Of a stretch of 64,000 nt of DNA, positions 4,867 to 56,495 are shown piece after piece. The translations under genes and the position numbers were made by a program. Position 1 is the first letter of the stretch. Each line of letters begins with the position of its first letter. The notes beneath the pieces are model-generated. The model worked only from the letters and a program-made list of their open reading frames with translations, had not been told where the DNA came from and did no database searches. Source of the stretch: Candidatus Poribacteria bacterium (GTDB lineage Bacteria > Poribacteria > WGA-4E > WGA-3G); the NCBI GenBank assembly GCA_965215265.1, contig OZ244048.1:1760001-1824000 (forward strand). The letters are read 5' to 3'.

Positions 4867-4868
4867 AC

Positions 4869-14802: not shown

Positions 14803-15789
14803 TTAATAGCAATCGCAGCATCCTTCCTGGATATCCAATTGAAGTTGTATTGTACTACTATCCGGTGTTGTTAGTGGCGTGCCGGGTCTGATTTTTTGAA
14901 AATCGATATGCCGAATGTCCTCGGGAATGAGAAAATATGGTTTTAACCGTTCCCAATCTGTGTCAACAATTGTAACGATTTCGCCACGGTGGAGACTGAC
15001 CCAAGCGTCGCCGATTTTAGCATCTGGAGCTGTCTGCTCTAACTTTCTTTGTGTGATTTTGACGTACTCGCTGTCGATATCTATGCCGATAACCTTTCGT
15101 CCGAGCCTTGCCGCTGCAACGGCTGTGGTGCCAGTTCCCATAAACGGGTCTAATATTACATCGCCTTCGTCGGTACTCATCAGAATCAGACGTTCTAAAA
15201 GATGTACTGGAAGTTGGCAGGGGTGGGCATCCCGGTGTTTGTTGTGACGGATACGGTGAATATCTGACCAGGTATCAGAAACAAGCGGCCCAAACGGGTG
15301 TAAAATCTTTTTTTTGCCACCGTAGTCTTTTGCTAAGTAGCCACATTTCCTACATCGCTTATGTGGATATCGGAGCTCATAGAATTTGTGCTCTCGCCTA
15401 TTTTTTACGTAAAACAGAATACCGTAGTGTGATGGCTGCAAGGTTTTGCCCATCGGTGCAGTCGGGGCATCCCAGGCAATCCAGTGGCGAAACTCAGCGA
15501 CTTGATTGAGGAAACCGGCGTAATACGTGAGCCACTTTGGGATATTGTGGACAAAAATCGAACCAGTCGGTTTCGTAACCCGCACCATTTCTAAGAGCCA
15601 TTGCTGACACCAGCTGAGGTAGGTATCATCGGCTTTGCTGTCTTTATACCTACTGTACTTCTTGTTAAGATTAAAGGGCGGATCGGCAAATGTAACATCA
15701 ACACTGTCAGCAGGAAACTGCTTCATGACTGCTAAGCAATCGCCTTCTATGATTTTGTTGAGGAATTTTTCCACGTTATCGTTATCCAA
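14803..15789 (-). CDS. N4-cytosine/N6-adenine DNA methyltransferase (beta class), orphan
   Basis: FADPPFN catalytic motif, HPCQLP and VILDPFMGTGTT SAM motif. TTG start overlaps the serS stop. Confidence 0.93.
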   Translation of the reverse strand: MDNDNVEKFLNKIIEGDCLAVMKQFPADSVDVTFADPPFNLNKKYSRYKDSKADDTYLSWCQQWLLEMVRVTKPTGSIFVHNIPKWLTYYAGFLNQVAEFRHWIAWDAPTAPMGKTLQPSHYGILFYVKNRREHKFYELRYPHKRCRKCGYLAKDYGGKKKILHPFGPLVSDTWSDIHRIRHNKHRDAHPCQLPVHLLERLILMSTDEGDVILDPFMGTGTTAVAAARLGRKVIGIDIDSEYVKITQRKLEQTAPDAKIGDAWVSLHRGEIVTIVDTDWERLKPYFLIPEDIRHIDFQKIRPGTPLTTPDSSTIQLQLDIQEGCCDCY

Positions 15790-17077
15790 TTTGCGTTACA
15801 CCGCCCATATACGGTTGCAGCACTGCGGGTACTCGCACGCTGCCGTCCGGGTTCTGATACGTCTCGAGAAGTGCGATGACGACGCGCGGTAAGGCTGTCC
15901 CGGAGGCATTCAGTGTATGAATGAACTCTAGCTTTGCGCCGGCCTTTCTACGGAATCGGATGTTGGTGCGCCGCGCCTGGAATGCTTCAAAGTTACTACA
16001 AGAAGAGACCTCTAAAAACCGCTGCGCTGCAGGTGCCCAGACTTCAATATCGTAGCATTTAGCAGCGGCAAAGGAGAGCTCCACCGTGCAATGTTGTACC
16101 ACGCGGTAAGCCAATCCGAGGGCTTGGAGGACGCTCTCCGCATTGGCAAGGAGTGATTCGTGCTCTGCATAGGAGGTTTCAGGGGTAGTGAACTTGACCA
16201 TCTCTACCTTATCAAACTGATGGACGCGTTGTAAGCCGCGCGTGTCCCTCCCGTAAGCACCTGCTTCGCGTCGGAAACAGGGAGTATAGGCAGTGTAGTA
16301 GATGGGCAAGTCATCAGCACTCAAAATCTCACCAGCGAGGAGATTCGTAACCGGGACTTCCGCTGTCGGAATTAGGAACAAGTCGCTGTCGGGGTTCTGT
16401 TCGTCCCGGTCGCATCGGTACATATCCGACTCAAATTTCGGGAGTTGTCCTGTGCCTGTCATTGTCGGACGGTTTGCCAAGAAAGGCGGCGAGACCTCGG
16501 TGTATCCGTGCCGCGTAGTGTGCAGATCCAACATGAAATTGATTAAGGCACGTTCCAGTCTCGCACCTAAACCTTTAAAAAGAAGGAAGTTGCTACCGGA
16601 CACTTTTGCAGCGCGTTGAAAATCGACAATATCCAATTTTTCAGCGACTTCCCAGTGGGGTTTCAATTCAAAATCGAATTTTGGCAGTTCGCCCCAAGTT
16701 TTGATTTCAGTGTTGTCCGCTTCGCTGGTGCCGATAGGGGTACTTGCCTCCGGCATGTTTGGGATTGTCAGCAGTATTCCATCGATGTCGGTTTTCGTCT
16801 GGTTAGTTTCCAGCGTAAGTTTTTTTATTTTTTGGGATAGTTCGCGCATCTCCGCGATAGTTTCTGTTGCATCTTCATTCGCCTTTTTGCGCGCGGCGAT
16901 CTGCTGAGAAACAGTATTCTGGTGTGCTTTCAGGTTTTGAGTCTCCGTCAAATTTTTGCGCCACCGCGTATCTAATTCAAGCAGCCGGTTTAAGTCCGAG
17001 AGTGCATCACTCTGTCTATGGTGTAGCATCTGTCTAACAGCTTCACTATTTTCGCGAATAAATTTCAGGTCTAACAT
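15782..17077 (-). CDS. serS: Serine--tRNA ligase
   Basis: MLDLKFIREN, LIPTAEVP, FRREAG, RVHQFDKVE, EVSSCSN and HTLNASG motifs. Confidence 0.98.
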   Translation of the reverse strand: MLDLKFIRENSEAVRQMLHHRQSDALSDLNRLLELDTRWRKNLTETQNLKAHQNTVSQQIAARKKANEDATETIAEMRELSQKIKKLTLETNQTKTDIDGILLTIPNMPEASTPIGTSEADNTEIKTWGELPKFDFELKPHWEVAEKLDIVDFQRAAKVSGSNFLLFKGLGARLERALINFMLDLHTTRHGYTEVSPPFLANRPTMTGTGQLPKFESDMYRCDRDEQNPDSDLFLIPTAEVPVTNLLAGEILSADDLPIYYTAYTPCFRREAGAYGRDTRGLQRVHQFDKVEMVKFTTPETSYAEHESLLANAESVLQALGLAYRVVQHCTVELSFAAAKCYDIEVWAPAAQRFLEVSSCSNFEAFQARRTNIRFRRKAGAKLEFIHTLNASGTALPRVVIALLETYQNPDGSVRVPAVLQPYMGGVTQIG

Positions 17078-17217: not shown

Positions 17218-17292
17218 CGGGCCCGACGGGACTTGAACCCGCGACCTCCTGCGTGACAGGCAGGCGCGCTAAACCAACTGCGCCACGAGCCC
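17218..17292 (-). tRNA. tRNA-Asp(GTC)
   Basis: GGGCTCG/CGGGCCC acceptor stem, anticodon arm CCTGC-CTGTCAC-GCAGG, GGTTCAA T-loop; CCA not encoded. Confidence 0.97.
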
Positions 17293-17389
17293 CGAAGAAA
17301 TATTTAGGCAACGGATAGGTGAACTGCACATCTGCTTGTGAGAACCGCCGTATCTGATAATTGGAACCGATGTAGTGCTTTGTCAAAAA

Positions 17390-17464
17390 CGGGCCCGACG
17401 GGACTTGAACCCGCGACCTCCTGCGTGACAGGCAGGCGCGCTAAACCAACTGCGCCACGAGCCC
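17390..17464 (-). tRNA. tRNA-Asp(GTC), identical second copy
   Basis: Identical to 17218..17292. Confidence 0.97.
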
Positions 17465-17519
17465 TCAAATGCTTGTGTAACCGGAAACACGCTAAACGCC
17501 ATCTCCGCTACCTAACAGG

Positions 17520-17593
17520 TAGGCGGGACAGGACTTGAACCTGTGACCTACAGCTTGTAAGGCTGTCGCTCTAGCCACCTGAGCTACCCGCCC
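17520..17593 (-). tRNA. tRNA-Val(TAC)
   Basis: GGGCGGG/CCCGCCT acceptor stem, anticodon arm ACAGC-CTTACAA-GCTGT. Confidence 0.96.
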
Positions 17594-31747: not shown

Positions 31748-31786
31748 AAGTTTTTTTTGATGATAATCCGGATGTGAGAAAAAGGT

Positions 31787-31940
31787 TTGCCAAAAAGTAT
31801 TGTTTTCGGCTAAAATGTGTTCGTCTCTTTTTTAATTCGGAAAAAAGAGTTGCCAAAAAACGTTCATTGTGCAATAATGCGAACTAACCTTTGAGTCAGA
31901 CAAAAAAAGTTTGCCAAAAAGTGTTGTTTTCGGCTAAAAT
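31787..31940 (+). promoter_or_regulatory. Three tandem sigma70-like promoters
   Basis: TTGCCA-18-TAAAAT (31787), TTGCCA-17-AATAAT (31850) and TTGCCA-18-TAAAAT (31911); the first and third are near-identical. Confidence 0.55.
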
Positions 31941-32371
31941 GCCTTAACTCGAATCAGACAGGGAAAACTCAAAAAGATGAAACACCGAGAGTCCGTTTAC
32001 CAGAAGAGCAGAGTGCCTGGCCCCGTGCTGCGGGTTTGCAGTGTTGGCGGGAAGGCATTCGTATGCCGTGCTGTCGTGTGTTTTAACTGCCTGTTAAGAC
32101 GATTGACCCCTCCCCCTTCACGTGCGTTAACCCTCTTATTAACTCAAGCAGCCTCACCCGTCGTCGCTGCTTTCTCACGCCTGCACGCCTACCGTCTCGG
32201 ACGGTGGAAGCCGTTGCAGGCTTTTTTTCTGATGCGTGCGGTGTTCACTTGCGGAGGCCCTGGGCCCCTGCACGCCTGCCCGCCCGCAATCAAACTGATA
32301 ACGACTTATAAACCTAACCGATGCGATAATCGCATCGACAACGGACACATCGTCCGAAAGGATATTTTGAA

Positions 32372-32980
32372 ATGAAAGATTGGATGAACGCGAAAAAAGG
32401 CATCGTGATTTTATTGGGCGGGCTGGTGTTAGTGTTTGCCTGCTACGGGCTGGTAAGAGCGCAACACGGCTTGAAGCCCGTTCAATCAGAGACGCGGCAC
32501 GTCGCCCCGCCGGTTGACGGGCAGGCAGGCATAGCACGTAGCTTGCCTGCAGTCTCCCCCGACTCGGTTTCTCCTGAAACGGTTGCGGAGTGGTTGTCGC
32601 TCTTACGCGCCAACAATGACGGCTCCGCGGTTTTTGCACAGGGGATAGCGAACCTTGAGCAGGTGCTGTGGGAGATGCAGCCCGTGGAGCGGCCGCGGCT
32701 GTTAGCGAACTATCCGAATCCGTTCAACCCAGAAACGTGGATACCTTATCGGCTGGCAGTGCCAGGGGATGTGGAGATATCCATCTATGCGTTGGACGGG
32801 CGGTTAGTCCGGACGTTAGCCTTGGGACATCAAGCGGCGGGCCGTTACGAGAGCAAGGCACGCGCCGCGTATTGGGATGGGCGCAACGCCTCTGGTGAGC
32901 GTGTTGCAAGCGGTATCTATTTCTATACGCTGCGTGCCGGCGACTTCTCTGCGACGCAGAAGATGTTGATAAGGAAGTAA
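32372..32980 (+). CDS. Stand-alone FlgD-Ig/T9SS-type C-terminal sorting-like domain with N-terminal signal or anchor
   Basis: LLANYPNPFNPETWIPY...YWDGRNASGERVASGIYFYTL...TQKMLIRK. Confidence 0.88.
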   Translation: MKDWMNAKKGIVILLGGLVLVFACYGLVRAQHGLKPVQSETRHVAPPVDGQAGIARSLPAVSPDSVSPETVAEWLSLLRANNDGSAVFAQGIANLEQVLWEMQPVERPRLLANYPNPFNPETWIPYRLAVPGDVEISIYALDGRLVRTLALGHQAAGRYESKARAAYWDGRNASGERVASGIYFYTLRAGDFSATQKMLIRK

Positions 32981-33067: not shown

Positions 33068-35965
33068 GTGTTTCGCGGCATTTGGAGGACTGTAATGTAT
33101 GATAAAAACGTGTCAAAGGTTTGGAGCCTTTTGATGTTTGCTAAAAACGATTCAATGATTTGGAGGTCTTTGATGTTTGCTAAAAGTGTGTCAATGATGG
33201 CGTGTGTTCTCACGGTTTTGAGTTTGGGCGTTTTGAGCGATGTGTGTGCGCAAGGGGTAAGCCTGCCTGCGGATGTCGGTGTGCTTTCGACTGTGAAAGG
33301 TGATGCGGATGTGAATGGTGATGGCCGTGTGGATATAGTGGATTTGGCACTGGTAGCGGCGCGCCTGGGAACCCGCGGAAACAGTTCGGCAGATGTGAAC
33401 GGGAATAGGGTAGTGGATATAGGGGACGTGGCGTTAGTAGCGGCGGGGTTTAACGGTGCAGCGTCTGCGCCTGCGGCGCCTGCGTCTGCGCCAGCAGGGA
33501 TGGTGCTCATCCCCGCGGGCGAGTTCCAGATGGGCAGCAACGATGCTGAGAATCTTGATGTACGGGAGACCGAGCAGCCTGTGCATACGGTGCATGTGGA
33601 CGCGTTCTATATGGATACGCACGAAGTGACGAACGCTGAGTATAAAAGTTTTGTGCTGGCGAATCCCGAGTGGCAGAAGGGGCGTATTTCGGCTGTCTTC
33701 CACAGAGATAATTACCTAAAACGTTGGAACGGTAATAACTATCCAGAGGGTAAAGGGGACCATCCTGTGACGTTTGTGCCGTGGTATGCGGCGATGGCTT
33801 ATGCTGCGTGGGCAGGGAAGCGTCTTCCAACGGAGGCGGAATGGGAGAAAGCGGCACGTGGTGGGGAGGCAGGTCTGAAGTATCCGTGGGGAGACACGAT
33901 AACGCCGGACGATGCGAACTACGGTTGGAATGTACGCGGTACAACGGCTGTGGGGAGTTATGCTGCGAACGGGTATGGGCTGTTCGACATGGCCGGGAAC
34001 GTGTCGGAGTGGTGTCTTGATGCGTATAATGCGGATTTCTATTCTGCGTCTCCGTCTAGTAATCCGCTGAGTGGTGTGTCTGGTAATACGCTCGCGAATC
34101 TGGATGAGATTGTAGATGACTACACAAGCGTAAGTACGAGCTTAAATCGGGTGTCGCGGGGTGGTAATTGGCGTGGTGATGTGCGTTACCAGCGCGTCGC
34201 CGATCGTTTCAATAAGCCGCCGACGTTCACGAAAAGCTTCGTCGGGTTTCGTTGTGTGAGTGCAGTGCCGGCGGAACCACCCGCACCGGAGCCTGAGCCA
34301 CCCACACCGGAGCCTGAGCCACCCACACCGGAGCCTGAGCCACCCGCACCGGAGCCTGAGCCACCCGCACCGCCGGCACCGGCAGGGATGGTGCTCATCC
34401 CCGCAGGCGACTTCCAGATGGGCAGCAACGGTGCTGATGCGTGGAGTAACGAGCGGCCTGTGCATACAGTGTATGTGGACGCGTTCTATATGGATACGCA
34501 CGAAGTGACGAACGCGGAGTATCAAACTTTTGTGCTGGCAAACCCGCAGTGGCAGAAGACGCGTCTTCCGGATGTCTTCCACAATGGGAATTACCTAAGT
34601 CATTGGGACGGTAATAACTATCCAGTGGGTAAGGGGGACCATCCTGTGACGCATGTGTCGTGGTATGCGGCGATGGCATATTCCGCGTGGGCAGGGAAGC
34701 GTCTGCCAACGGAGGCGGAGTGGGAGAAAGCAGCACGCGGTGGGTTAGTTGGTAAGAAATACCCGTGGGGGGATACGATAACGGAGAACGATGCGAACTA
34801 TCAAACCGGCCGCGGCGATACAACGGCTGTGGGGAGTTATGCTGCGAACGGATATGGGCTGTATGATATGGCAGGGAACGTTCGGGAGTGGTGTCTTGAT
34901 GCGCATAATGCGGCATTTTATTCTGCGTCTCCGTCTAATAATCCGCTGAGCGGTGTGTCTGGCAGTATGCTCGCGAATCTGGATGAGATTGTAGATAACT
35001 ACACAACTGTTACCTCCTCTCGCGTGTTGCGCGGCGGTAGCTGGCACAATTCTGCACGGAACCTGCGTGCCGCTCTTCGCCACGGGAATTCACCTTCGGA
35101 CGCGCGCGGCAACAACGGGTTCCGGTGTGCGAGGGCTGTAACTCCTTCGCCGGAGGACGAGACACCGGCACCGGAACCGCCCGCCCCGGCACCTGCAGGG
35201 ATGGCACTCATCCCCGCAGGCGACTTCCAGATGGGCAGCAACGATGCTGATGCCTGGGATGACGAGGAGCCTGTGCATACGGTGTATGTGGACGCGTTCT
35301 ATATGGACACGCACGAAGTGACGAACGCCGAGTATAAAAGTTTTGTGCTGGCGAATCCCGAGTGGCAGAAGACGCGCATCCCCCGCACGCTCCACAATGG
35401 TCATTACCTAGCCGATTGGGAAGGTAATAACTATCCAGTGGGTAAGGGAGACCATCCTGTGACGCATATGTCGTGGTATGGTGCGATGGCATATGCTGCG
35501 TGGGCAGGGAAGCGTCTGCCGACGGAGGCGGAATGGGAGAAAGCGGCACGCGGTGGTTGGGCCGGGTTAAAGTATCCGTGGGGAAATACGATATCCCCTG
35601 CGAACGCGAACTACGGTAGGAATGTAGGGGACACCCGTCCTGTGGGGAGTTATGCGGCGAACGGATATGGGCTATATGACATGGCAGGGAACGTGTGGGA
35701 GTGGTGTCTTGATGAGTGGGATGCGGATTTCTATTCTGCGTCTCCGTCTAGTAATCCGCTGAGTGGTGTGTCTGACAGTATGCTCGCGAATCTGGATGAG
35801 ATTGTAGATGACTACACAAATGTTACCTCCACTCGCGTGTTGCGCGGCGGTGGCTGGGGCATTAATACACGATACCTGCGCGCCGCTGATCGCTACGGGT
35901 TTACGCCAACGGGCACGAACATCCTCCACTACGGGTTCCGGTGTGCGAGGGCTGTTACTCCTTAA
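33068..35965 (+). CDS. Secreted dockerin plus 3x FGE-sulfatase-type (C-type lectin fold) protein; putative DGR target
   Basis: Dockerin DVNGDGRVDIVDL x2; three MVLIPAG.F.MG...KRLPTEAEWEKAARGG...RGG.W...GFRC domains; Pro-Glu linkers; no catalytic FGE Cys pair. The true start is probably one of the ATGs at 33095-33173. Confidence 0.93.
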   Translation: MFRGIWRTVMYDKNVSKVWSLLMFAKNDSMIWRSLMFAKSVSMMACVLTVLSLGVLSDVCAQGVSLPADVGVLSTVKGDADVNGDGRVDIVDLALVAARLGTRGNSSADVNGNRVVDIGDVALVAAGFNGAASAPAAPASAPAGMVLIPAGEFQMGSNDAENLDVRETEQPVHTVHVDAFYMDTHEVTNAEYKSFVLANPEWQKGRISAVFHRDNYLKRWNGNNYPEGKGDHPVTFVPWYAAMAYAAWAGKRLPTEAEWEKAARGGEAGLKYPWGDTITPDDANYGWNVRGTTAVGSYAANGYGLFDMAGNVSEWCLDAYNADFYSASPSSNPLSGVSGNTLANLDEIVDDYTSVSTSLNRVSRGGNWRGDVRYQRVADRFNKPPTFTKSFVGFRCVSAVPAEPPAPEPEPPTPEPEPPTPEPEPPAPEPEPPAPPAPAGMVLIPAGDFQMGSNGADAWSNERPVHTVYVDAFYMDTHEVTNAEYQTFVLANPQWQKTRLPDVFHNGNYLSHWDGNNYPVGKGDHPVTHVSWYAAMAYSAWAGKRLPTEAEWEKAARGGLVGKKYPWGDTITENDANYQTGRGDTTAVGSYAANGYGLYDMAGNVREWCLDAHNAAFYSASPSNNPLSGVSGSMLANLDEIVDNYTTVTSSRVLRGGSWHNSARNLRAALRHGNSPSDARGNNGFRCARAVTPSPEDETPAPEPPAPAPAGMALIPAGDFQMGSNDADAWDDEEPVHTVYVDAFYMDTHEVTNAEYKSFVLANPEWQKTRIPRTLHNGHYLADWEGNNYPVGKGDHPVTHMSWYGAMAYAAWAGKRLPTEAEWEKAARGGWAGLKYPWGNTISPANANYGRNVGDTRPVGSYAANGYGLYDMAGNVWEWCLDEWDADFYSASPSSNPLSGVSDSMLANLDEIVDDYTNVTSTRVLRGGGWGINTRYLRAADRYGFTPTGTNILHYGFRCARAVTP
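34277..34380 (+). repeat. 21-bp coding tandem repeat (PP[A/T]PEPE linker)
   Basis: CCACCCRCACCGGAGCCTGAG, about 4.5 copies. Confidence 0.9.
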
Positions 35966-35986
35966 ATCTTTACCCCTTTACCTTCT

Positions 35987-36006
35987 CCGATCTGCGTGCA
36001 GATCGG
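35987..36006 (+). other. GC-rich hairpin just after the terminal variable region (DGR target-recognition-like)
   Basis: CCGATCTG-CGTG-CAGATCGG, about 21 nt after the stop, with no following U-tract. Confidence 0.6.
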
Positions 36007-36359
36007 GTCGGCATAATTTATTAACTAATAGTTAAAAAATCGTTATAAATAGGGTAAAATATTAACTATCTGTTAATTTTCAGTTCATTTTTTGCCCGGT
36101 GCGTGCTGAACCCGGTTCGGTTTTGTGCTGGGCCAAACCGTATCTTGTCCGGCTCGTTTTATGCGCAGCGAAAGATAAAAGCAGAGGTGTGATGGTGAGT
36201 AGGCCGTGTGCCGAATGCTATCACACCTCTTTATTGAATCTTTATGCGATTAACTCCGTTTTTTCCGCTGCAGCAGATGCTCCTGTTTTTCCCAACGTTT
36301 CCCTTTATCCCGTTGCCCGTTACATGCCTGTTATTGGACTCGCAGATGCGATTTATTGC

Positions 36360-47365: not shown

Positions 47366-47423
47366 GTAAACGAGAGGACCGTGCCCTTACGGCCCTACCC
47401 CGCGGCTTTCGACAGCCCGTGCC

Positions 47424-47615
47424 ATGTTGTGTAGGCCTTCGTCAAGTTGCCAAAATTGTGAAACAGTTACGAGTTGTTATCCTAGCTGTTGCAGTAGTAC
47501 TTCACCTTGTAATAGTTGTAGTGCACATTGTCAAAATCAAGATAGCGATGAATACATGTGCAATGGTTCTTGCCAACCGACTAAGTGCAAGGTTGCGGTG
47601 GCTTCGATTCCCTGA
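47424..47615 (+). CDS. Cys-rich small peptide (possibly a 5'-truncated remnant)
   Basis: 12 Cys in 63 aa; ends just before the SD of the first WD40 gene. Confidence 0.5.
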   Translation: MLCRPSSSCQNCETVTSCYPSCCSSTSPCNSCSAHCQNQDSDEYMCNGSCQPTKCKVAVASIP

Positions 47616-47637
47616 GAAAAAAAATAGGAGGTCCAAG

Positions 47638-49623
47638 GTGGAAAATACTCCGTTGCAAAAGGTGAGACAAGACATGGGCATCGACAAAGATGTCATGACA
47701 TGGGCTCTGCCAGAAGGTGCAATTGCCCGATTCGGACGAGGTAGAGTCGCGAAGATGGCGTTTGCGCCGAATGGAAACACACTCGCTGTTGGCAGCTGCC
47801 TTGGTGTCTGGCTCTATGATATATCCACCTTGACTCCCTTATGTTTATTTGATACGGAACGCGGCATGGTTTCAGCACTTGCATATTCCCTCAATGGTGT
47901 TTTTATTGCAACCGGTAATTGGGATGGTGACATCAAGATATGGGACGTGCAAAGCAAACGGTGCATTTCCAAAATGAAGCGGAAAGGTCGGTTTGATATG
48001 GCCTCCCACCTCGTTTTTTCACCGGATGGACAACGTCTCGCCTCTTCTGGTGGACGCTACGATGCTGTTTATGTCTGGTGTCCGGAAACCGGGGCACAAA
48101 TTGCGAAATTTGTCGATGAAGCATCCCTGCAACCGCGTCATCGCCCTGGACGCATTCCACTCTCATTTTCGCCTGATGGGAGATTGCTCGCAGGAGCAAC
48201 CCCTAGAAATACTTTTTCTGTTTGGGATCTGGAAACTTGTGAACGTATTGCTTGCGTCACCAGACATACGGATTCTGTCCGTATGCTTCTCTTTTCACCG
48301 TGTGGGCAATTCCTGACTTCCGCGGACCGGGCAGGTGTTTTTCATGAATGGGATGTGAACAAAATTACTGCAAAGGAACCAAGTCCTTGCTTCTCAGTGA
48401 TACCCACTGCCGCGACATCTGTTCAGGCACTCGCTTATTTAACCGACGGCACATTAGTTGCCGCAGGGAAGAATGAAAACACCGTTAGTGTCTGGGATGT
48501 GAAGCATAGAAACACGTTGCGGATTTTAAGAAGCGAATGGTGCCCCAATCCCAATTCGTTCTGCTTTTCATCCAGCGGTTCGCAATTGGCTTTAGTTTGG
48601 AAAGATCAGATTCAAGTGTGGGATATTGGATTCTCCCGAAAGAATACGATTCGTGAACATACGCCAGTGTATGGTGCCGTGACATTTTCACCGGATGGAA
48701 ACACTTTGGCATCAGGGAGTTGGGGCAACGGCATCCGCCTATGGGATGTTGCGCGGTTAGAACCTCAGAAAGCATTTGGAGAGGAATCCGCAATTCGCTC
48801 ACTTGATTTTTCGGCCTGTGGAAATAAACTCGCTTCTGGCTCCTACGATACTGCTGTGAGGATGTGGGACATTAGGAAAGTAGAGACACCCCTTGTTGAG
48901 TTTGCGGCAGATCAGAAATCGATATGGTGCGTCGCGTTTCCTTCAAAAGGTGACACCTTGTTCTGTGCCAATTCAGCAGGCCATCTGTATATGTGGGATA
49001 GGGAACAAAACCGGACTATGTTCCCTATCAGAACAAAGCACATAAAGTCTTTGTCAGTTTCGCCAGATGAAAAAAAGGTGGTGATTGCTTACTTCAACGG
49101 CCCCGCTGAACTCTGGGATGTTGAAAGCAAGCAGTTGATAACAGAGTTATCCTTAGTAAAAGTCAAAAATCGCTCAAAGTATAAAGGCGATACGCACGCA
49201 ATTCAACAATGTCTCCAATGGCAAGAGAAAGATGCAGAAAGCACCCCTATTCAATTGATAGGTCCGATTGTTTTTTCTCCATGTGGTAGCGTCATCGCAG
49301 GAGGGCTATTTAGAGAGATTCGGTTGTGGAATGCGACAACATATCAAATCTATATGGCGATACGTCTGCCTCAGGGATGTCAGAGGCCGGAGGCATTAAC
49401 ATTTTCACCGTGTGGACGCTATCTCGTTTCCGGTGCGTCATGGCAAGGCACTGATAAAGTGTCGATCCGGTTATGGGAGGTTGCCACGGGTGAGAATGTT
49501 ACGACGTTCTGGAGTCACCCGACGGATGTCCAAGACCTAGCGTTTTCGCCGGATAGCACGTTGTTGGCGAGTGGGAGTTTTGATGGCACCATCCTCTTGT
49601 GGGATATGAAGCCTTATCTATAG
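47638..49623 (+). CDS. WD40-repeat (probable double beta-propeller) protein 1
   Basis: AGGAGG SD before GTG 47638; WALPEGAIARFGRG N-terminus; repeated FSPDG/FSPCG...WD; ends LASGSFDGTILLWDMKPYL. Confidence 0.92.
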   Translation: MENTPLQKVRQDMGIDKDVMTWALPEGAIARFGRGRVAKMAFAPNGNTLAVGSCLGVWLYDISTLTPLCLFDTERGMVSALAYSLNGVFIATGNWDGDIKIWDVQSKRCISKMKRKGRFDMASHLVFSPDGQRLASSGGRYDAVYVWCPETGAQIAKFVDEASLQPRHRPGRIPLSFSPDGRLLAGATPRNTFSVWDLETCERIACVTRHTDSVRMLLFSPCGQFLTSADRAGVFHEWDVNKITAKEPSPCFSVIPTAATSVQALAYLTDGTLVAAGKNENTVSVWDVKHRNTLRILRSEWCPNPNSFCFSSSGSQLALVWKDQIQVWDIGFSRKNTIREHTPVYGAVTFSPDGNTLASGSWGNGIRLWDVARLEPQKAFGEESAIRSLDFSACGNKLASGSYDTAVRMWDIRKVETPLVEFAADQKSIWCVAFPSKGDTLFCANSAGHLYMWDREQNRTMFPIRTKHIKSLSVSPDEKKVVIAYFNGPAELWDVESKQLITELSLVKVKNRSKYKGDTHAIQQCLQWQEKDAESTPIQLIGPIVFSPCGSVIAGGLFREIRLWNATTYQIYMAIRLPQGCQRPEALTFSPCGRYLVSGASWQGTDKVSIRLWEVATGENVTTFWSHPTDVQDLAFSPDSTLLASGSFDGTILLWDMKPYL

Positions 49624-49746
49624 CATGAAACGTCATGACGCGACATCTCATCTGTACATCTGGTTTTCACGCCCGCCCACCCAATTCCTATCAAAACATA
49701 AATAGTTGTTGTGCTGCAGTAGACGAAAAAAAAGGATTAATGTAAG

Positions 49747-51720
49747 ATGAAACAAAATCAAAGACATTTTCAGTCATTGCCCGGTGACAACGGTTTTACG
49801 ACGTGGGCCCTGCCGGAAGGGGCTACAGGTCTATTTGGACAAGGCGATGTATTGGATATGGCATACTCCCCAGATGGCAAGTATCTCGCTGTAGCGACCT
49901 CTATTGGCTTGTGGTGGTATGAATTATCCACGATGTCTCCCGTGGATCTGTGGAATACGGGACAAAGGGTAATTTCCACTATATCCTTTTCCTCTGACAG
50001 TAAATGGATTGCCACAGGGGCATCTGATGGAAGCATCAAGGTGTGGGATGTTTCAAGCCGCGTCTGCATCACGCAGGTAACACGATGGAAGCAACAGAAA
50101 CAAAATCAACTGTTGCATCAAAATGAGATTTCTTGTATCACCTTCTCATCCGACAATCAACGAATTGCTGTGTCCGGCAAGCGCGATTATATCGTTGACC
50201 TATGGCACCCTGAAACCGGTGAACGATTTGGGGAAATCAACGGCGATTCTCAAATAGAACTACGACAGTACTGTGGACTTACCCGACCTGTTGCTTTTTC
50301 ACCTGACAGTCAACTGCTTGCATGTTTAAGCCCACACGGCACAAATAATCCAACGTCACCCGAAGCCGAATTCATCTCGGTGTGGGCTATTTCTAGCGGT
50401 GAGTGTGTCGCGACGCTTAACAAATATACTCCCGGTTCTATGTGGTATTCCCTCTGTTTTTCGCCTTGTGGCAGTTACCTTATTGCCAGCGGCAATGTAG
50501 AGGATAAAGTGCAGATATGGGATGCAAGCAGTTGGGAACAGATTAGAACGCTTCCAGATTATGGGGCAAATTGGATAATACCTTCTTATTCTCCTAAGAC
50601 GGTTCTGCATGTAGCGGCGATGTTTGATGATACCAATACCATCGACGTGTGGGACGTAGAACACTCTCAGAAACTCTGGACTTGCCAGACCCCTAAGGAA
50701 ATTTCTGATGTCCTATTTTTTAATGGGACACAGTTAGCAGTAAATAGTGGACTTGAATTTAAAGTGTGGGCAGTTAAAAATAACCAACCCCGGACTATAC
50801 ATCATACACACCTCTCCTTAGTTCACTCGCTAGAGTTTTCATCTGATGGGAAAACTCTAGCGTGTGGATATAGGCGTGATGGAATTCTACTATGGAATAT
50901 TGACATTCCTTCACACCCGCAAAGCGTTTTCAAGCCGCCTGGTATAAAACATCATGTTTGCGCGTTCACCAATGAAAAAATCTATACCGCATGTGTTGAC
51001 GAAAACACCATTAAGGTATGGGAAGTTGGAGGTAGTGCACCTTTTGCCCAAATCACACCAGAGAATCCGCCAACGTATTCGGCATTTGCATTCGCACCTG
51101 TAACCAACCTCCTTGCCTCCGGGGATGACGAAGGCACCGTGAGAGTCTGGGATGTAACACGAGGAGTGCTGCTCTATACCTTCACAAAGCACACCACCAC
51201 AATGCTACGTTTAGTGTTTAGCCTTGATGGGAAATTCCTTGCGAGTTTTGCAAACTACGGACCCGATGCCCGACTCTGGAATATTGAAAGTGGACAGGAA
51301 ATTTCCAATTTTCCAGGAGATCGCATTGAAACGATTGCCTTTTCGCCTTGTGGGACCTTGATTGCCGCTGACACAGAAAAAGAAATTCTTGTGTGGGATA
51401 TCACCTCTTCTGAAACCCAACTCACAATCCCTAAACCAGAAGAGTGGATGGATAATGGCCTCTGGCAGCTTGCGTTTGCTTTTTCACCAGACGGTCGATA
51501 CTTGGCTTCAGGTTCGTGCTGCGATTTAGGTATGGTGAAAATACCTGTGCGGTTATGGGACATGGCAACAGGCGAGAATCTTGCTACTTTCTGGGGGCAC
51601 ACAAGGAGTATTTCCGCGCTCTCCTTTTCACCGGATGGGATGCTTTTGGCAAGTGGGAGTGATGACGGCACCATCCTCTTGTGGGATATGAAGCCTTACA
51701 TACAACATGAAACGTCATGA
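49747..51720 (+). CDS. WD40-repeat protein 2
   Basis: Same architecture; overlaps the permease start by 14 nt. Confidence 0.92.
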   Translation: MKQNQRHFQSLPGDNGFTTWALPEGATGLFGQGDVLDMAYSPDGKYLAVATSIGLWWYELSTMSPVDLWNTGQRVISTISFSSDSKWIATGASDGSIKVWDVSSRVCITQVTRWKQQKQNQLLHQNEISCITFSSDNQRIAVSGKRDYIVDLWHPETGERFGEINGDSQIELRQYCGLTRPVAFSPDSQLLACLSPHGTNNPTSPEAEFISVWAISSGECVATLNKYTPGSMWYSLCFSPCGSYLIASGNVEDKVQIWDASSWEQIRTLPDYGANWIIPSYSPKTVLHVAAMFDDTNTIDVWDVEHSQKLWTCQTPKEISDVLFFNGTQLAVNSGLEFKVWAVKNNQPRTIHHTHLSLVHSLEFSSDGKTLACGYRRDGILLWNIDIPSHPQSVFKPPGIKHHVCAFTNEKIYTACVDENTIKVWEVGGSAPFAQITPENPPTYSAFAFAPVTNLLASGDDEGTVRVWDVTRGVLLYTFTKHTTTMLRLVFSLDGKFLASFANYGPDARLWNIESGQEISNFPGDRIETIAFSPCGTLIAADTEKEILVWDITSSETQLTIPKPEEWMDNGLWQLAFAFSPDGRYLASGSCCDLGMVKIPVRLWDMATGENLATFWGHTRSISALSFSPDGMLLASGSDDGTILLWDMKPYIQHETS

Positions 51721-52969
51721 CGCGATTGCCGCTGGAATTGCACATCTGGCACAAAATCGGTTACGCGCTGGGTTATCTATCCTCGGCATCTTCATCGGGA
51801 TTACGAGTGTACTTTGCATGATAGCCATCGGCAATGGGGCGAAAAAAATCATCGCAGATGGTCTGGAAACGCTTGGCGGTGTAGACCAAGTGCAATTCCG
51901 AAACATTTATAGAACTTACCGAAGAGGCCGCTGGCAGCGAATAACCGAACGCCTCAAATTCGACGATGCACTCGCAATTGAAGCTGAATGTCCAAATATC
52001 CGATTTGTCTTGCCGAAAAATGAACGCTACAGTGTTTTTGTCACCCGGCAAGAAGGCAGCCAAGCTTACCCGATTCTGGAAGGTGTCACAGCAGACTACG
52101 CTCTCGGAATGCACTGGCGTGTCCAAGAAGGCCGATTTCTTTCAGAAAATGATATTATCCAAGCGATGCAAGTCTGTGTTTTGGGTGCCGACGTTGCTAC
52201 GGAGTTGTTTGGAGAAATGAAACCGATTGGGCAAGAGGTGAAGATTCGGTATTATTGGCGGCAAACACCCGTCCGGATGCGTGTTGTGGGGGTGATGAAA
52301 CCTAAGGGCCAAGGGGTTAACTCTACTTGGACACTTGATAATGTCATCTGTGTGCCCTTGACGACGCACCAACAGCGGCTTTCAGGCTATTCTTATGTAG
52401 AACGCATTACGGTTTTCACCCAAAAGTCTGTGGACATGTCTGCGGTTATTGCCTCAGCGCGTGCGGTGATTCGCAAAAGACATCGTAACCGAGACGATTT
52501 TGTCTCCCATTGGGTCCCCACAGGCACAGTGAAAAGGCTAGAACATATCCAAAGGGTGATAAAAATTGCCTTGGGTGGGATAGCAGGTTTCTCGTTGTTT
52601 GTGAGTGGTATCGGTATCATGAACATCTGCCTCGTCTCGGTAGGGGAAAAGACGCGTGAGATAGGGTTGCGAAAGGCGGTTGGGGCGAAACGGATTGATA
52701 TTTTCTGGCAATTCTTAGCTGAGTCGATATGTCTCTGTATGTGTGGTGGCACCCTCGGTATTGCGGGCGGCTGGTTGGCGGCACACGGCATGGCAGAGCT
52801 TGCTGTCCACATTGTGCCGATTGTGCCGGTGTGGCCTGTCGTGCTTTCTTTGCCGTGGCTATTCACGGCTATTCTGTTTTCATTTTTCATGGGTATGAGT
52901 TTTGGTGTCTACCCGGCGATGCGGGCGGCACGACTAGCCCCGATGGACGCACTTCGAACAGAGAACTAG
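51707..52969 (+). CDS. MacB/FtsX-like ABC permease 1 (no ATPase domain)
   Basis: NRLR..LSILGI.IG, GRF and GIGIMNI.LVSV.EKTREIGLRKAVGA...PA.RAARL.P motifs. Confidence 0.93.
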   Translation: MKRHDAIAAGIAHLAQNRLRAGLSILGIFIGITSVLCMIAIGNGAKKIIADGLETLGGVDQVQFRNIYRTYRRGRWQRITERLKFDDALAIEAECPNIRFVLPKNERYSVFVTRQEGSQAYPILEGVTADYALGMHWRVQEGRFLSENDIIQAMQVCVLGADVATELFGEMKPIGQEVKIRYYWRQTPVRMRVVGVMKPKGQGVNSTWTLDNVICVPLTTHQQRLSGYSYVERITVFTQKSVDMSAVIASARAVIRKRHRNRDDFVSHWVPTGTVKRLEHIQRVIKIALGGIAGFSLFVSGIGIMNICLVSVGEKTREIGLRKAVGAKRIDIFWQFLAESICLCMCGGTLGIAGGWLAAHGMAELAVHIVPIVPVWPVVLSLPWLFTAILFSFFMGMSFGVYPAMRAARLAPMDALRTEN

Positions 52970-52971
52970 GA

Positions 52972-53610
52972 CAGAGTAGTACTCAGGGGTTCGCTCCCCC
53001 TGCAGAGAAACAAGATCTTTTCGTATATCTCCGTACCATCAAGGTTTTTTGTATATTTAAGCCCTATAAACGTTTTTGTTTTGATCGCTCGTGTATAAAT
53101 CTCGTTTTTTTGTATCTCTTGGTACCATCAAGGGTTATGTATTGTTAAATCCGATGTTGGCAGGTTCGGTATTCTTTATCTCTCCGTCAGGAGAGATAAG
53201 ATTACCTTATCCTGCCAATCTATAGATAAATCTCGTCGGAGGTTAACTAGGTAATGTCTTTAAAAATCTAAACATCAGAACCCTCTGGCGAGATTTGTAA
53301 AGGGTTTAACATTGCAGCAGCCTTGTTGCGGGCTGCACTATACGAAAAAAGGCACAACTGCCCTTAGGTTTTATAAGAGTCTGCCTGGTTGTCGTTGTTG
53401 AAAACGCAGATGCTTAGCGATGCATGGGTGTATTGAAGAGATAATAATAGGCTATGACGATAATGGAATCCTTTGGTGATTATTCAGATAAAAAAACAGC
53501 ATTTTGAACCTGAACGGAAAATCTGTCTAATATTTAGATTCATTGCAAAAAAAATTGCATTTCTCATTGTGTTTTCGTATATCTCCGTACCCTCAACGTC
53601 TATGTTTTTG
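52972..53610. repeat. Cluster of dispersed repeat modules
   Basis: 52972-53045 is near-identical to 60391-60465; also contains the MITE-like element, the palindrome and the 23-kb repeat copy. Confidence 0.85.
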
Positions 53611-53845
53611 ATAGCCTGCAATGGCGATTGTCCAGAATACGAGGATTATTAAAACTGTATCCAAACTGTCACCTAAAGGGTTCTCAGTGTTCTGAAATCG
53701 CTTTGCTCCGTTTTTTCTTTCAAAACCTTGTGATTTCGTGTTATTCTAGTGTCCTAAACTGATCTGGCTGTACAAATCGGGGCAGTTTGGTATAAAGTGG
53801 CAGCTTAGGTAGGCTGTAATTCCCTGAGAAAAGCATCTAACGCAA

Positions 53846-55798
53846 ATGATAAACCGTGCTTCCAATAGCAAAAGTACCAGGTGGGCATTACCGAACGGGG
53901 CAATGGGTCGATTAGGCCGTGGGATTGTGGATGATTTAGCATTCTCACCCGATGGCTGCTATCTTGCTGTTGGTACCTCTGTAGGACTTTGGTTGTATGA
54001 ACTGTCCACACTACTGCCTATTGCTCTCTGGGAAACAGAGCGCGGGTTAGTTTCCGCGCTCGCTTTCTCACAAACTGGAGAATGGATTGCAACAGGAAAT
54101 TGGGATGGTGCGGCTAAGATCTTGGATGCACAAAGTGGTAGATGCGTCACTAAAATCGCTAGAGGTACAAGGCGAGCGGCTATTTCCACCCTCGCCTTCT
54201 CTCCGACTAAACGCTATCTCGCTGCATCTTCAAGACAGGACGATGTAGTTTACGTCTGGCACTCTGAAACGGGTACACAAATTGCGAAGTTTTCACAAGA
54301 ACGGAAAAATAGGGGGCGGATGCCGACTAGAGCCCTGACCTTTTCGCCTGATGGGAATCTGCTCGCATGTGTAAGTGATAAAGAACCTGATGGCATAGGA
54401 GAAAGCATCAAAGTATGGGAATTAGAAACTGGCAAATGCATTGCCTTACTCCTTGGACATGTTTCTTTTGTCTATGCAATCTCTTTTTCACCATGCGGGC
54501 GTTTCCTCGCTTCCGGTGGACGTGACTTGACGGTTAGAATATGGGATGTGACACAAGGACAATTAAAGGAGGTCCATTCTTATTATGGTCTCCATCGCAT
54601 GCTACCAGCCTATTCCCGTGATGGAGTTCTATATGCAGCAGGGGTGGCTGATAACACGATATCAGTGTGGAATTTGACACTTGGTGAAAAACTCACTACC
54701 TTCAAACATCAAGGGACTATCCGTGTTGTCCGTTTTTCGGATAATCGGTTTCGATTGGCTGTATCTGGCAGGTACGATTTTAAAATATGGGATGCGAATA
54801 ATCCTGATGATGTCTCTTCTGTTTCCGGACACGACCGGTCACATATCCCCTATTTTTTGAGGTTTTCCGCCAATGGGAAGATACTTGCAAGTGCTGGGCG
54901 CGGACCTGCTATTTGCTGGAATGTTGTGCAGAAACAACCACAACGAACCTTGCTTCGCCCAAAAGCAGCAATCCAATCTCTCTATATTTCCGCCGATGGA
55001 AACATACACGCGTTGGGTAGTAAAGGAAACATGTGCTACCTATGGGATGTGGTAACTGATGAAACAATGGCTACGCTTATTGTACACGAAAAAGTTGGAT
55101 ACGCAGTAGCAGTAGCACCAATAGGTGAACCTTGGGCGAGTGCGGACATAGGTGGAAAACTGTACGTATGGAACAGTAACGGAAAACAGACAGTGCTTAT
55201 TGGGCATACTGCTACAATAGCTGCCCTTGACTTCGCGCCGGACGGAAAGCAACTCGCGAGTGCCTCAAGGGATAAAACAGCACGGATATGGGATGTCGCG
55301 TCTGGTGAAGAGATTACCTCGCTTGCCTTAACACCGCTGTTAGATACTACCTTGTATAAAGGAGATGTACATCAACTCCAAAAACGGTGTAAATCGTTAG
55401 CCAAAGCTGCATCGTCACAGAACCCAAAGCCTATTGAAGCAATCGCTTTTTCATCGCACGGAGAGCACATCGCCGGTGGACTCTGGCGCGAGATACGCTT
55501 ATGGGATGCAACAACGTATAAACCTTGTATGGCAATCTTGCTACCAGAAGGGTGTCAGCGTCCGTATGCGTTAGCGTTTTCGCCGTGTGGACGCTATCTC
55601 GCCTCTGGTGCTTGGTGGCAAGGCACGGAGAAAGTCTCCATCCGGTTATGGGAAGTGGCCACGGGTGAAAATATCGCCACCTTCTGGGGACACCCGACGG
55701 ATGTCCAAGACTTAGCGTTTTCACCGGATGGCACGTTGTTGGCGAGTGGGAGTTTTGATGGCACCATCCTCTTGTGGGATATGAAGCCTTATCTATAG
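53846..55798 (+). CDS. WD40-repeat protein 3
   Basis: WALPNGAMGRLGRG start; C-terminus near-identical to WD40-1. Confidence 0.92.
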   Translation: MINRASNSKSTRWALPNGAMGRLGRGIVDDLAFSPDGCYLAVGTSVGLWLYELSTLLPIALWETERGLVSALAFSQTGEWIATGNWDGAAKILDAQSGRCVTKIARGTRRAAISTLAFSPTKRYLAASSRQDDVVYVWHSETGTQIAKFSQERKNRGRMPTRALTFSPDGNLLACVSDKEPDGIGESIKVWELETGKCIALLLGHVSFVYAISFSPCGRFLASGGRDLTVRIWDVTQGQLKEVHSYYGLHRMLPAYSRDGVLYAAGVADNTISVWNLTLGEKLTTFKHQGTIRVVRFSDNRFRLAVSGRYDFKIWDANNPDDVSSVSGHDRSHIPYFLRFSANGKILASAGRGPAICWNVVQKQPQRTLLRPKAAIQSLYISADGNIHALGSKGNMCYLWDVVTDETMATLIVHEKVGYAVAVAPIGEPWASADIGGKLYVWNSNGKQTVLIGHTATIAALDFAPDGKQLASASRDKTARIWDVASGEEITSLALTPLLDTTLYKGDVHQLQKRCKSLAKAASSQNPKPIEAIAFSSHGEHIAGGLWREIRLWDATTYKPCMAILLPEGCQRPYALAFSPCGRYLASGAWWQGTEKVSIRLWEVATGENIATFWGHPTDVQDLAFSPDGTLLASGSFDGTILLWDMKPYL

Positions 55799-55813
55799 TA
55801 TGAAACGTCATGA

Positions 55814-56137
55814 CGCGACATCTCATCTGCACATCTGGCTTTCACTGGCGGTGTTATTTTCGCGGGTGCGTTTGATGGGTTTGTTGTAAAAACGGAAGCC
55901 ACGAGCTGCTGTGGTGGAGGAACAGATGTTTCTCTTTCCTTTACCAATGGTTGTGGAAGTTGTGACGCTGACGATTGTTCGTGCAGCTCATCAAGCGGAT
56001 GCAATGGTACTCGCGGATGTACGGATACTAGCAGTCAAGGCTGTCTGGATGCGAATGGAGTAAACCAGTGTGGAGGTAAGTGTTCAAATCAGTGTGGTGC
56101 TACGAGCGACTGCAGCACTACAAGTCCCTATCATTAA
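55814..56137 (+). pseudogene. Cys-rich secreted-type peptide frame lacking an ATG (absent from the ORF track)
   Basis: ...LAFTGGVIFAGAFDGFVVKTEA-TSCCGGG...CGSCDADDCSCSSSSGCNGTRGC...CGGKCSNQCGATSDCSTTSPYH*; 13 Cys. Confidence 0.65.
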
Positions 56138-56495
56138 TGTGTGTTGCCAGCAGCCTCGCCTAATTTATGATTCAGGCGCGTGAGCAACCTCTCTGACTTA
56201 GCCTAATCCAAGGAAGGTTTTCTATAAGCCTATTCTTACGTTTGGTTTTTTGTAGATTTCAGCACGACAAAGGCTGATGTGGCAGGATAGGTATTCTTTT
56301 TCTGTCCATGAGAAAAGATTACCTTTTACCTGCCATCTATAGATTTTGGTAAAACCTTTACAAATCTCGTCTGAGGGTCCCGATGTTTTGATTCAAAACA
56401 TCAAACGGCTCTCACGAAATTTGTGCTGTTGAATGGTTATTATAAAATCCGTTTTTGTTGTGCTGGTGTAATTATGAAAAAGGGGAGAGACTTTT

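Follow-up and report, generated by a model that had tools for sequence, protein, structure and literature searches.

The locus considered here raises the question of how the ends of two lectin-fold domains within one gene acquired the adenine-centred substitution pattern of a diversity-generating retroelement (DGR) with no reverse transcriptase (RT) or template (TR) at hand, and whether such rewriting still goes on. The original prediction took the gene for a remote target of a trans-acting DGR. Analysis of the whole 64-kb stretch of DNA (the window) leads to a related but narrower answer: the variable regions of domains 2 and 3 (VR2 and VR3) are very probably DGR-written tips of a secreted, multivalent ligand-binding protein of the TvpA class, mostly retained since they were written, with the template lying elsewhere.

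The coordinates and reading frame originally given for the gene are correct (Table 1). Translation probably begins at an ATG, at 33095, 33134 or 33173; the N-terminus is hydrophobic and signal-like when read by eye, so that the protein would appear to be secreted. Pro-rich linkers connect its three FGE-type C-type lectin (CLec) domains. The 202-aa upstream gene is co-oriented with the target gene, has a hydrophobic N-terminus as well and is possibly co-transcribed with it. Apart from this gene with its T9SS tail, the neighbourhood consists of housekeeping and transport genes; 5 kb upstream there is a gene for a sulfatase, and SerRS is encoded at 15782-17077. An Rfam scan of the window returned three tRNAs only. 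Domains encoded in the window include WD40, PF12799 LRR and TIGR04183, features that the accessible text of PMC3909097 also describes for Poribacteria, uncultured bacteria known from sponges, in which they live as symbionts.

Table 1. Features of the target gene and of its immediate surroundings, in window positions.
Feature	Position	Strand	Basis or remark
Upstream gene, 202 aa, FlgD/T9SS type A sorting-like C-terminal domain	32372..32980	+	Profile matches
Target gene, 965 aa from first GTG	33068..35965	+	ORF and Pfam (PF03781 x3, PF00404)
Dockerin type I-like module, residues 81-125	33308..33442	+	PF00404, E=8.8e-7
CLec domain 1	33497..34267	+	Pfam PF03781
VR-like end of domain 1, putative fossil	34148..34267	+	Codon comparison
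CLec domain 2	34385..35146	+	Pfam PF03781
VR2, internal variable region of domain 2, 42 codons	35021..35146	+	VR alignment
IMH-like constant 3' end of VR2, 30 nt	35117..35146	+	Putative IMH role, from position
CLec domain 3	35198..35965	+	Pfam PF03781, AlphaFold2 model, structure match
VR3, C-terminal variable region of domain 3, 43 codons (one extra)	35834..35962	+	VR alignment
IMH-like constant 3' end of VR3	35933..35962	+	Putative role
Hairpin 3' of target gene, 8-bp perfect stem	35987..36006	+	Possible DGR target cruciform, non-consensus loop

The comparison of VR2 with VR3 carries the main conclusion. With the best gap placement the two differ by 28 substitutions, 23 of which have A in one copy (29 and 24, respectively, with the second-best placement); the extra codon and the A excess of the original prediction therefore stand, while its counts (27 substitutions, 22 with A) were each one off. 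As control we took the 633 nt that precede the VR in domains 2 and 3. Differences involving A make up 24/29 in the VR versus 50/106 in the control (Fisher p=6.5e-4), third-position differences 5/29 versus 51/106 (p=0.003), and the third base is kept in 16 of 17 non-synonymous VR codon pairs versus 21 of 43 upstream (p=0.001). All 12 template-Asn columns read NNY in both regions, with the same third base at 12/12, against a scaffold background of 215/422 for NNY codons. As predicted, four of the five non-A differences fall at positions 1-2 of NNY codons (CAC/GGC, CTT/GAT, CAC/TAC, GGC/ATC); the fifth, a third-position CGT/CGC, is the only difference that template-A mutagenesis leaves unexplained. 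The constant 3' ends, IMH-like by position, agree at 29 of 30 nt. Template-adenine mutagenesis accounts for such a pattern, in which variation is confined to the first two bases of AAY and the first base of ACN codons, leaving third bases and the 30-nt 3' end constant. At the level of sequence there is good support for the proposal that one template, lying beyond the window, gave rise to both VR2 and VR3 through DGR adenine mutagenesis. Furthermore, a single non-A difference between the two regions, versus 56 in the 633-nt scaffold, implies rewriting that is recent relative to the domain duplication. One detail of the implied template did not hold: the column taken as a fixed Gly reads G35, R26, W13 and K7 among 122 non-redundant homologous VRs, which points to an A-bearing Arg-type template codon instead.

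The window and 120 homologues together supplied a family set of 245 domains (182 with a canonical-length VR, 122 non-redundant); domains whose VR departs from the canonical length or motif (63 of the 245, window domain 3 among them) were left out of the column counts, as was column 22, at which TR-like ORFs disagree. In 30 variable scaffold columns, K, E, Q, M or W take up 678 of 3501 sites (19.4%), but at template-Asn sites 49 of 1464 (3.3%; Mann-Whitney test by column, p=6e-5), a near-exclusion that AAY mutagenesis predicts, and template-Thr sites hold T, A, S or P at 303/366. The VR is kept in 49 of 61 domains having a partner of at least 90% scaffold identity (the pairs are not independent), which agrees equally well with episodic rewriting that ended in fixation or in loss of the machinery. 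A division into frozen internal and active terminal VRs is unsupported, with retention at 23/29 versus 26/32 and K/E/Q/M/W at 3.6% versus 3.1%; in P0003, whose domains 1 and 2 share 94% of the scaffold and 8% of the VR, an internal VR was fully rewritten too. At least two full CLec domains occur in 108 of 120 homologues, a figure that partly reflects the length limits of the search. The members are mostly signal-peptide-bearing (judged by eye) and multivalent, and some carry a caspase-like N-terminal domain (PF00656). Six lie on what is seemingly one contig of 3,261,609 nt and four on one of 5,661,971 nt, which suggests many DGR targets per genome.

The predicted absence of a local RT or template is borne out. 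A Pfam scan of the window found no RT in 71/71 ORFs of at least 120 aa, a six-frame search of the same stretch gave no YxDD match, blastn of the three VRs against it matched only the VRs themselves, and no complete DGR cassette (RT, TR and accessory gene beside the target) lies within it. A scan of GTDB with a degenerate VR/TR motif, which may be too strict or may have met a collection in which the lineage is unrepresented, returned 4 loci from other phyla; these are CLec genes in Competibacter, Zetaproteobacteria, Gallionella and Alphaproteobacteria, and their flanks hold no RT ORF. VR2 had no blastn match in phage and plasmid collections. It was also searched by phmmer against 1.84 billion representatives, with a ranking that followed repeat number; short multi-VR proteins from other lineages (26 inspected) were rejected as templates, and P0121 was the only single-stretch match among the 150 matches listed. 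The label Ca. Poribacteria is attached to four short Asn-rich ORFs (P0121, P0266, P0353 and the partly mutated P0274) that hold only the VR-like stretch and so resemble TRs in translation. P0267, 72% identical to P0266 with flanks included, accounts by A-to-N changes alone for 34/36 codons of VR2 and likewise of VR3 (2/36 columns mismatch). In a test accepting any codon of each template residue it was the best of 62 TR-like ORFs, with 4 incompatible codons against 7 in the runner-up; these ORFs came from a search that took P0121 and the VRs of the window as seeds. At the protein level, the TR-like ORFs depart from the VRs after GFRCA.

The three VRs are of different ages, as the scaffold of domain 1 no longer resembles that of domains 2 and 3. 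Its VR-like end still has NNY in 10 of 12 variable codons, but only 5 of the 19 scaffold codons common to the other two are unchanged, Lys stands in two columns and the IMH-like 3' end has drifted; by its codons it is an old, drifted fossil whose template match is lost. Identity to the nearest homologue, P0001, is 81% for domain 1, 97% for domain 2 and 88% for domain 3. P0001 keeps 33 of 36 VR2 residues, and one of the three changes (Ala/Val) is not A-type. The domains nearest to domain 3 (88-89% scaffold) bear unrelated VRs, and the difference between VR3 and P0001 could reflect a domain swap, the scaffold being 88% identical. The hairpin predicted 3' of the stop codon is real, with a perfect 8-bp stem (5 GC) around the 4-nt loop CGTG, 21 nt past the stop. 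For VR3 alone among the three, its position and stem agree with published target hairpins (GC-rich, 7-10 bp, 4-34 bp downstream of the VR); the loop, CGTG on the sense strand and CACG on the other, departs from the tetraloop consensus GRNA, which was derived from phage DGRs. The 64 kb contain about 10 different perfect stems of at least 8 bp, and the 91-nt stretch with the hairpin has a folding z-score of only -1.2. It was not called as an intrinsic terminator and is without a T-tract. VR3 is the only plausible candidate for a live target; since retention is equally frequent among terminal and internal VRs, this choice depends wholly on the hairpin and on precedent.

Two further readings compete with this one, and the fold bears on one of them. 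The AlphaFold2 model of domain 3 (mean pLDDT 90.9) matches FGE with Z 29.7 and the DGR variable protein TvpA (2Y3C) with Z 26.6 (rmsd 2.0, 209 residues aligned), and the VR sits at the C-terminal end of the CLec1/FGE fold. FGEs being the best matches in sequence and structure, and a sulfatase gene lying nearby, the protein might be a formylglycine-generating (SUMF1-type) enzyme for sulfatases, or a GldK/PorK-like secretion-ring protein, for which the summed three-domain score of 403 exceeds the cut-off of 350. This is scarcely credible, as a hypervariable region stands in place of the FGE active-site stretch: in the alignment to FGE, the stretch with two catalytic cysteines after an RGGS-like motif is absent, the catalytic Cys pair is missing from domain 3, and each VR has a single Cys, in GFRC. 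The GldK score, moreover, sums six stretches over three repeated domains, the best spanning model positions 223-406 only. A non-catalytic, ligand-binding protein of the TvpA class (FGE-type CLec1), probably from Ca. Poribacteria, fits these features. Ordinary diversifying selection with gene conversion on the ligand-binding pocket of duplicated domains is likewise highly improbable. The domains are indeed mosaic, and upstream scaffold divergence is also patchy (up to 16 differences per 10 codons), but selection fixes no third bases, gives neither the A-bias nor the K/E/Q/M/W exclusion, and leaves the match to Asn-rich TR-like ORFs unexplained.

Given DGR writing, the choice lies between a target that is still live and one that has been orphaned. 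That an intact RT, Avd and TR elsewhere in the genome still rewrite VR3, and VR2 less often, in trans is a tentative reading that we hold at somewhat less than an even chance. It draws on the nearly perfect common scaffold and 3' ends of VR2 and VR3, the perfect stem within the published distance, the unrelated VRs in the closest relatives of domain 3, intact TR-like ORFs in Poribacteria-labelled records, fully rewritten VRs in some close family pairs such as P0003 domains 1 and 2, and the precedent of Thiohalocapsa DGR 4 and 5. It sits less well with the non-consensus loop, the near-unchanged VR2 of P0001 and its non-A Ala/Val change, the retention of most VRs between close relatives, and a GTDB motif scan that located neither RT nor TR. 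Loss of the DGR core, leaving three fixed VRs that vary only by ordinary mutation and domain shuffling, is possible, yet we would stop short of calling it likely. Here the same retention, the fossil domain 1, the partly mutated P0274 and the lack of a lineage match among GTDB representatives count in favour, as do precedents in which targets persist in Treponema denticola isolates without RT or TR (accessible text of PMC4891356) or in cyanobacteria (PMC7517822, likewise in part); the intact hairpin and the single non-A difference, which argues for relatively recent rewriting, count against. The original remote-target claim is supported for DGR writing from an outside template and is possible, no more, for a live trans-DGR target; most related VRs, terminal and internal alike, are kept between close relatives.

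Under the preferred reading of DGR-written, mostly retained tips, a DGR RT would make cDNA from one TR elsewhere, template adenines being read as random bases, and this cDNA would once have overwritten the ends of domains 2 and 3 that bind the ligand. Whole CLec domains would have been duplicated and exchanged between paralogues, as the mosaic identity to P0001 suggests. Chosen variants would mostly have been retained, domain 1 as an old fossil and domain 2 kept since the split from P0001, leaving domain 3 with the hairpin after its stop as the sole plausible live target. Judging by the fold and by DGR precedent, the ligand is most likely carried on the surface of phages, of neighbouring cells or of a host. 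A wider and rather unlikely reading is that one trans-acting Poribacteria DGR serves an antibody-like, genome-wide repertoire, in which it writes the binding tips of many scattered genes for secreted tandem lectins. Selected tips would be archived as whole domains are duplicated and shuffled into multivalent arrays, the scaffolds of which carry dockerin, caspase or PEGA modules, and the domain that stays editable might be licensed by a hairpin whose loop is not GRNA. If so, one gene would preserve a history of selection over several rounds, with domain 1 as the fossil, domain 2 fixed and domain 3 live. Three VR ages in one gene, together with closed genomes that seemingly hold several members, make the rate of internal-VR rewriting, the need for a hairpin and the retirement of targets testable.

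In the openly accessible literature searched, no DGR report for Poribacteria came to light; PMC10504277 has both terms in unrelated passages, and "Poribacteria" is absent from the supplements of PMC8144416 (its two large tables to a depth of ~4 million characters each), PMC11661182 and PMC10907252. Neighbourhood-based DGR surveys miss remote targets by design (PMC8144416). Like the targets of Thiohalocapsa PB-PSB1 DGR 4/5, the present gene has three tandem CLec domains with VRs and no complete DGR at the locus. According to the accessible portions of PMC10907252, those targets are diversified in trans from a TR elsewhere, with TR match and read-level variation demonstrated and the third VR most often variable; the DGR 5 target has a signal peptide. 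They differ in their N-terminal vWA, part of a MoxR/VMAP conflict system, where the gene here has a dockerin-like N-terminus. The FGE-type CLec1 fold without enzyme activity is shared with Treponema denticola TvpA (PMC4891356, PMC5758913, 2Y3C, in the text available). This species has surface-located targets, several scattered per genome (PMC4891356); the available sections of the two papers describe no tandem-CLec target for Treponema, whereas such targets are the rule in the present family. The accessible part of Wu et al. 2018 (PMC5758913) lists 73 non-adjacent (category b) targets for 45 of 372 DGRs, and also a gene in which three FGE-sulfatase domains stand in tandem, two of the VRs being internal and all of them apparently mutagenised; unlike in that gene, domain 1 here has lost its scaffold match to domains 2 and 3. 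Cyanobacterial remote variable proteins, as covered in the accessible text of PMC7517822, similarly have CLec modules dispersed within genomes on varied N-termini, including caspase-like ones, and their paralogues show remnant TR homology, for which retirement after selection was proposed; they are, however, mostly cytosolic kinase fusions with one CLec, as opposed to the largely signal-peptide-bearing, multivalent members here. Remote, multi-VR (triple-CLec) and orphan DGR targets are thus already published and the mechanism is not new; what the present locus adds is a large secreted tandem-CLec family with a clean DGR signature, most likely from Poribacteria, most of whose tips now look frozen.

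The ORF listed below as the target gene is most probably a target of the FGE-type C-type lectin (CLec1) class that was written by a diversity-generating retroelement (DGR) and carries no local cassette, while the DGR origin taken alone merits higher confidence than this whole account. Pfam assigned three FGE-sulfatase/CLec domains (domains 1, 2 and 3). Modelled with AlphaFold2 (pLDDT 90.9), domain 3 matched FGE at Z 29.7 (rmsd 2.5 over 232 aligned residues) and TvpA, a DGR variable protein of Treponema, at Z 26.6 (rmsd 2.0 over 209); its match to Mtd was lower, at Z 14. The multi-domain lectin fold read in the original prediction is correct. An enzyme role was rejected, since the variable region (VR) takes the place of the FGE stretch bearing two catalytic cysteines. 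The N-terminus, read by eye, looks like a signal peptide, and the product is likely a secreted, multivalent binding protein. The rest of the neighbourhood comprises metabolic, transport and WD40 genes. In a 1489-aa database protein (P0235), a T9SS/FlgD-like domain resembling that of the upstream gene is fused to CLec domains, a hint that the upstream and target genes may work together.

Features of the target gene and of the remaining window
Feature	Position	Strand	Remarks
ThsB-like TIR gene, directly followed by 8xMP membrane protein gene	4451-5330	+	PF08937 (PADLOC ThsB E=2.8e-6); PF24838; low-GC end of window; candidate two-gene anti-phage system
Three tRNA genes	17218-17593	-	adjoin seryl-tRNA synthetase gene
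Motif in three spaced copies	31778-31941		two 39-nt copies 95% identical; overlaps sigma-70-like promoter matches; upstream of 32372 and 33068 genes
202-aa gene, FlgD/T9SS type A sorting-like tail	directly upstream of target gene	+	co-oriented
Target gene	33068-35965	+	ORF, 965 aa counted from first GTG
Three 39-nt tandem copies	33080-33194	+	each with RBS-like stretch and in-frame ATG (alternative starts for target gene); N-terminal length varies here among homologues P0001, P0002, P0006, P0007, P0008
Dockerin type I module of target gene	residues 81-125	+	Pfam
Three FGE-sulfatase (CLec) domains of target gene		+	Pfam; Pro-rich linkers between
VR2 (end of domain 2)	35021-35146	+	
VR3 (end of domain 3)	35834-35962	+	
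8-bp hairpin	35987-36006		21 nt past stop
AT-rich direct and inverted repeats	36014-36077		directly past hairpin; possibly operator
MacB/FtsX permease genes alternating with WD40 beta-propeller genes	47419-59773	+	two similar blocks; second WD40 gene appears split into two overlapping ORFs (56496-57461, 57394-58521)

The DGR signature claimed originally is real, resting on adenine bias, third-base constancy and the near absence of other change. Between VR2 and VR3 there are 28 substitutions, 23 of them involving A, or 29 with 24 involving A, according to where the extra codon is put; the earlier counts (27 substitutions, 22 with A) were each off by one. As control, the 633 nt preceding the VRs in both domains gave 50/106 differences involving A (Fisher p=6.5e-4 vs VR). 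Third positions account for 5/29 differences in the VRs against 51/106 upstream (p=0.003), and the third base is kept in 16 of 17 non-synonymous codon pairs compared with 21/43 upstream (p=0.001). Where template-like ORFs carry Asn (12 columns), NNY stands throughout in both VRs (12/12), with the same third base in all 12. Only one difference (CGT/CGC) lies beyond A-to-N change, and the final 30 nt are identical at 29/30 positions. By arithmetic rather than observation, twelve AAY codons alone would allow 15^12 (about 1.3e14) protein variants per domain.

A protein-level signature in the homologue family is independent of the window DNA. The protein search gave 4993 matches among 8000 candidates, and the best 120 of the 4993, which were analysed, are tandem-CLec proteins with varied N-termini (dockerin, caspase-like PF00656, PEGA PF08308, cohesin) and with hypervariable VR-like ends in internal as well as terminal domains. 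Among these 120, a longest contig of 3,261,609 nt is common to six homologues and one of 5,661,971 nt to four, suggesting several targets per genome. Lys, Glu, Gln, Met and Trp are unreachable from AAY via adenine changes. In 122 non-redundant VRs (from 245 full domains, 182 with a VR of canonical length), these residues occupy 49/1464 template-Asn sites (3.3%) against 678/3501 sites in 30 variable scaffold columns (19.4%; p=6e-5, columns taken as units), and template-Thr sites hold Thr, Ala, Ser or Pro at 303/366. Within the domain 2 VR of P0002 a short stretch is duplicated in tandem, an expected outcome of reverse-transcription slippage or of recombination.

The absence of a local reverse transcriptase (RT) or template repeat (TR) was upheld: none of the 71 ORFs of at least 120 aa in the window encodes an RT, a six-frame search found no RT motif, and blastn and motif searches for VR-like DNA returned the target gene only. 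The post-stop hairpin is real; its distance fits the 4-34 bp range given for phage DGRs, whereas its loop (CGTG) differs from the GRNA consensus of PMC3240598. The folding z-score at this site is only -1.2.

Scanning genomes with a degenerate motif matching both VRs yielded four CLec loci, in other phyla and with no RT nearby, and phage and plasmid collections gave no match. One of these loci (L002, Zetaproteobacteria) has two adjoining CLec genes that share 86% identity in their VR-like ends (8802-8957 and 9998-10150) and in the sequence beyond them; the flank examined showed no RT, and this is likely another multi-target or remote DGR locus. Among database proteins, P0121 (78 aa, labelled Ca. 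Poribacteria) resembles a translated TR because it consists of an Asn-rich VR-like stretch alone. That label also stands on the TR-like ORFs P0266, P0274 and P0353, whereas two relatives with shared flanks, P0265 and P0267, have none. P0274, apparently mutagenised already in its first half and Asn-rich in its second, is possibly a damaged template. The best of 62 TR-like ORFs, P0267, covers 34/36 codons in each of VR2 and VR3 by A-to-N alone (29/36 only in domain 1), in a lenient test allowing any codon per residue and on a set whose search query contained the VRs of the window. With four incompatible codons in total (seven for the runner-up), P0267 is closely related to the cognate template without being that template. 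Some short proteins (P0125, P0131, P0135, P0142, P0144, P0148, P0150, P0156 and others) consist solely of 2-4 tandem VR-like motifs, already diversified, and lack the remainder of the CLec domain, an odd minimal architecture.

Evidence on whether the target gene is still rewritten is mixed: its VRs may be rewritten in trans by a DGR elsewhere or, about equally probably, may be orphans left without the machinery. The original prediction of a remote target of a trans-acting DGR holds for a DGR-written gene without local cassette, while its live status is matched in likelihood by the orphan reading. Continued rewriting agrees with some close pairs in the family that are wholly rewritten, internal VRs included, and with rewriting recent relative to duplication, since a single non-A difference separates VR2 from VR3 against 56 in the upstream scaffolds. 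It sits less easily with retention. Scaffold identity to the nearest homologue (P0001) is 172/212, 206/212 and 186/212 for domains 1, 2 and 3, and VR identity 18/36, 33/36 and 23/36; these unequal values indicate that VR2 was kept and that the gene is a mosaic of exchanged whole domains. When the scaffolds of 37 domains (window plus 14 homologues) were placed in a tree, domain 2 paired with its counterpart in P0001, and domain 3 grouped with the third domain of P0001 and the second of P0007. Across the family, most VRs are retained where a partner has at least 90% scaffold identity (26/32 terminal, 23/29 internal; pairs not independent), which contradicts the idea of active terminal and frozen internal VRs. 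The domain 1 VR is a fossil: it has NNY at 10/12 and retains only 5/19 shared scaffold codons, two of its codons encode Lys, and its 3' end has drifted. It is conserved in P0002, P0006, P0007 and P0008.

The labels of the TR-like ORFs and the domain content of the window make Poribacteria the probable host, and its WD40, PF12799 LRR and TIGR04183 domains agree with Poribacteria features in PMC3909097. No DGR report for Poribacteria was found in the literature and supplements searched (large supplement tables possibly incomplete; subscription papers and bioRxiv supplements outside scope), and a term search of PMC8546597 gave no relevant passage. The significance lies in a probable new DGR host group, the family size and a testable layering of VRs differing in age. 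One survey, by its own statement, could not see remote targets (PMC8144416). Known systems offer close parallels: non-adjacent targets for 45/372 DGRs, along with a gene bearing three FGE-type domains in tandem (PMC5758913), dispersed paralogues with proposed retirement after selection (PMC7517822), remote targets as well as targets persisting in strains without RT or TR (PMC4891356), and triple-CLec targets diversified in trans, one bearing a signal peptide, together with a silent target still matching a TR (PMC10907252).
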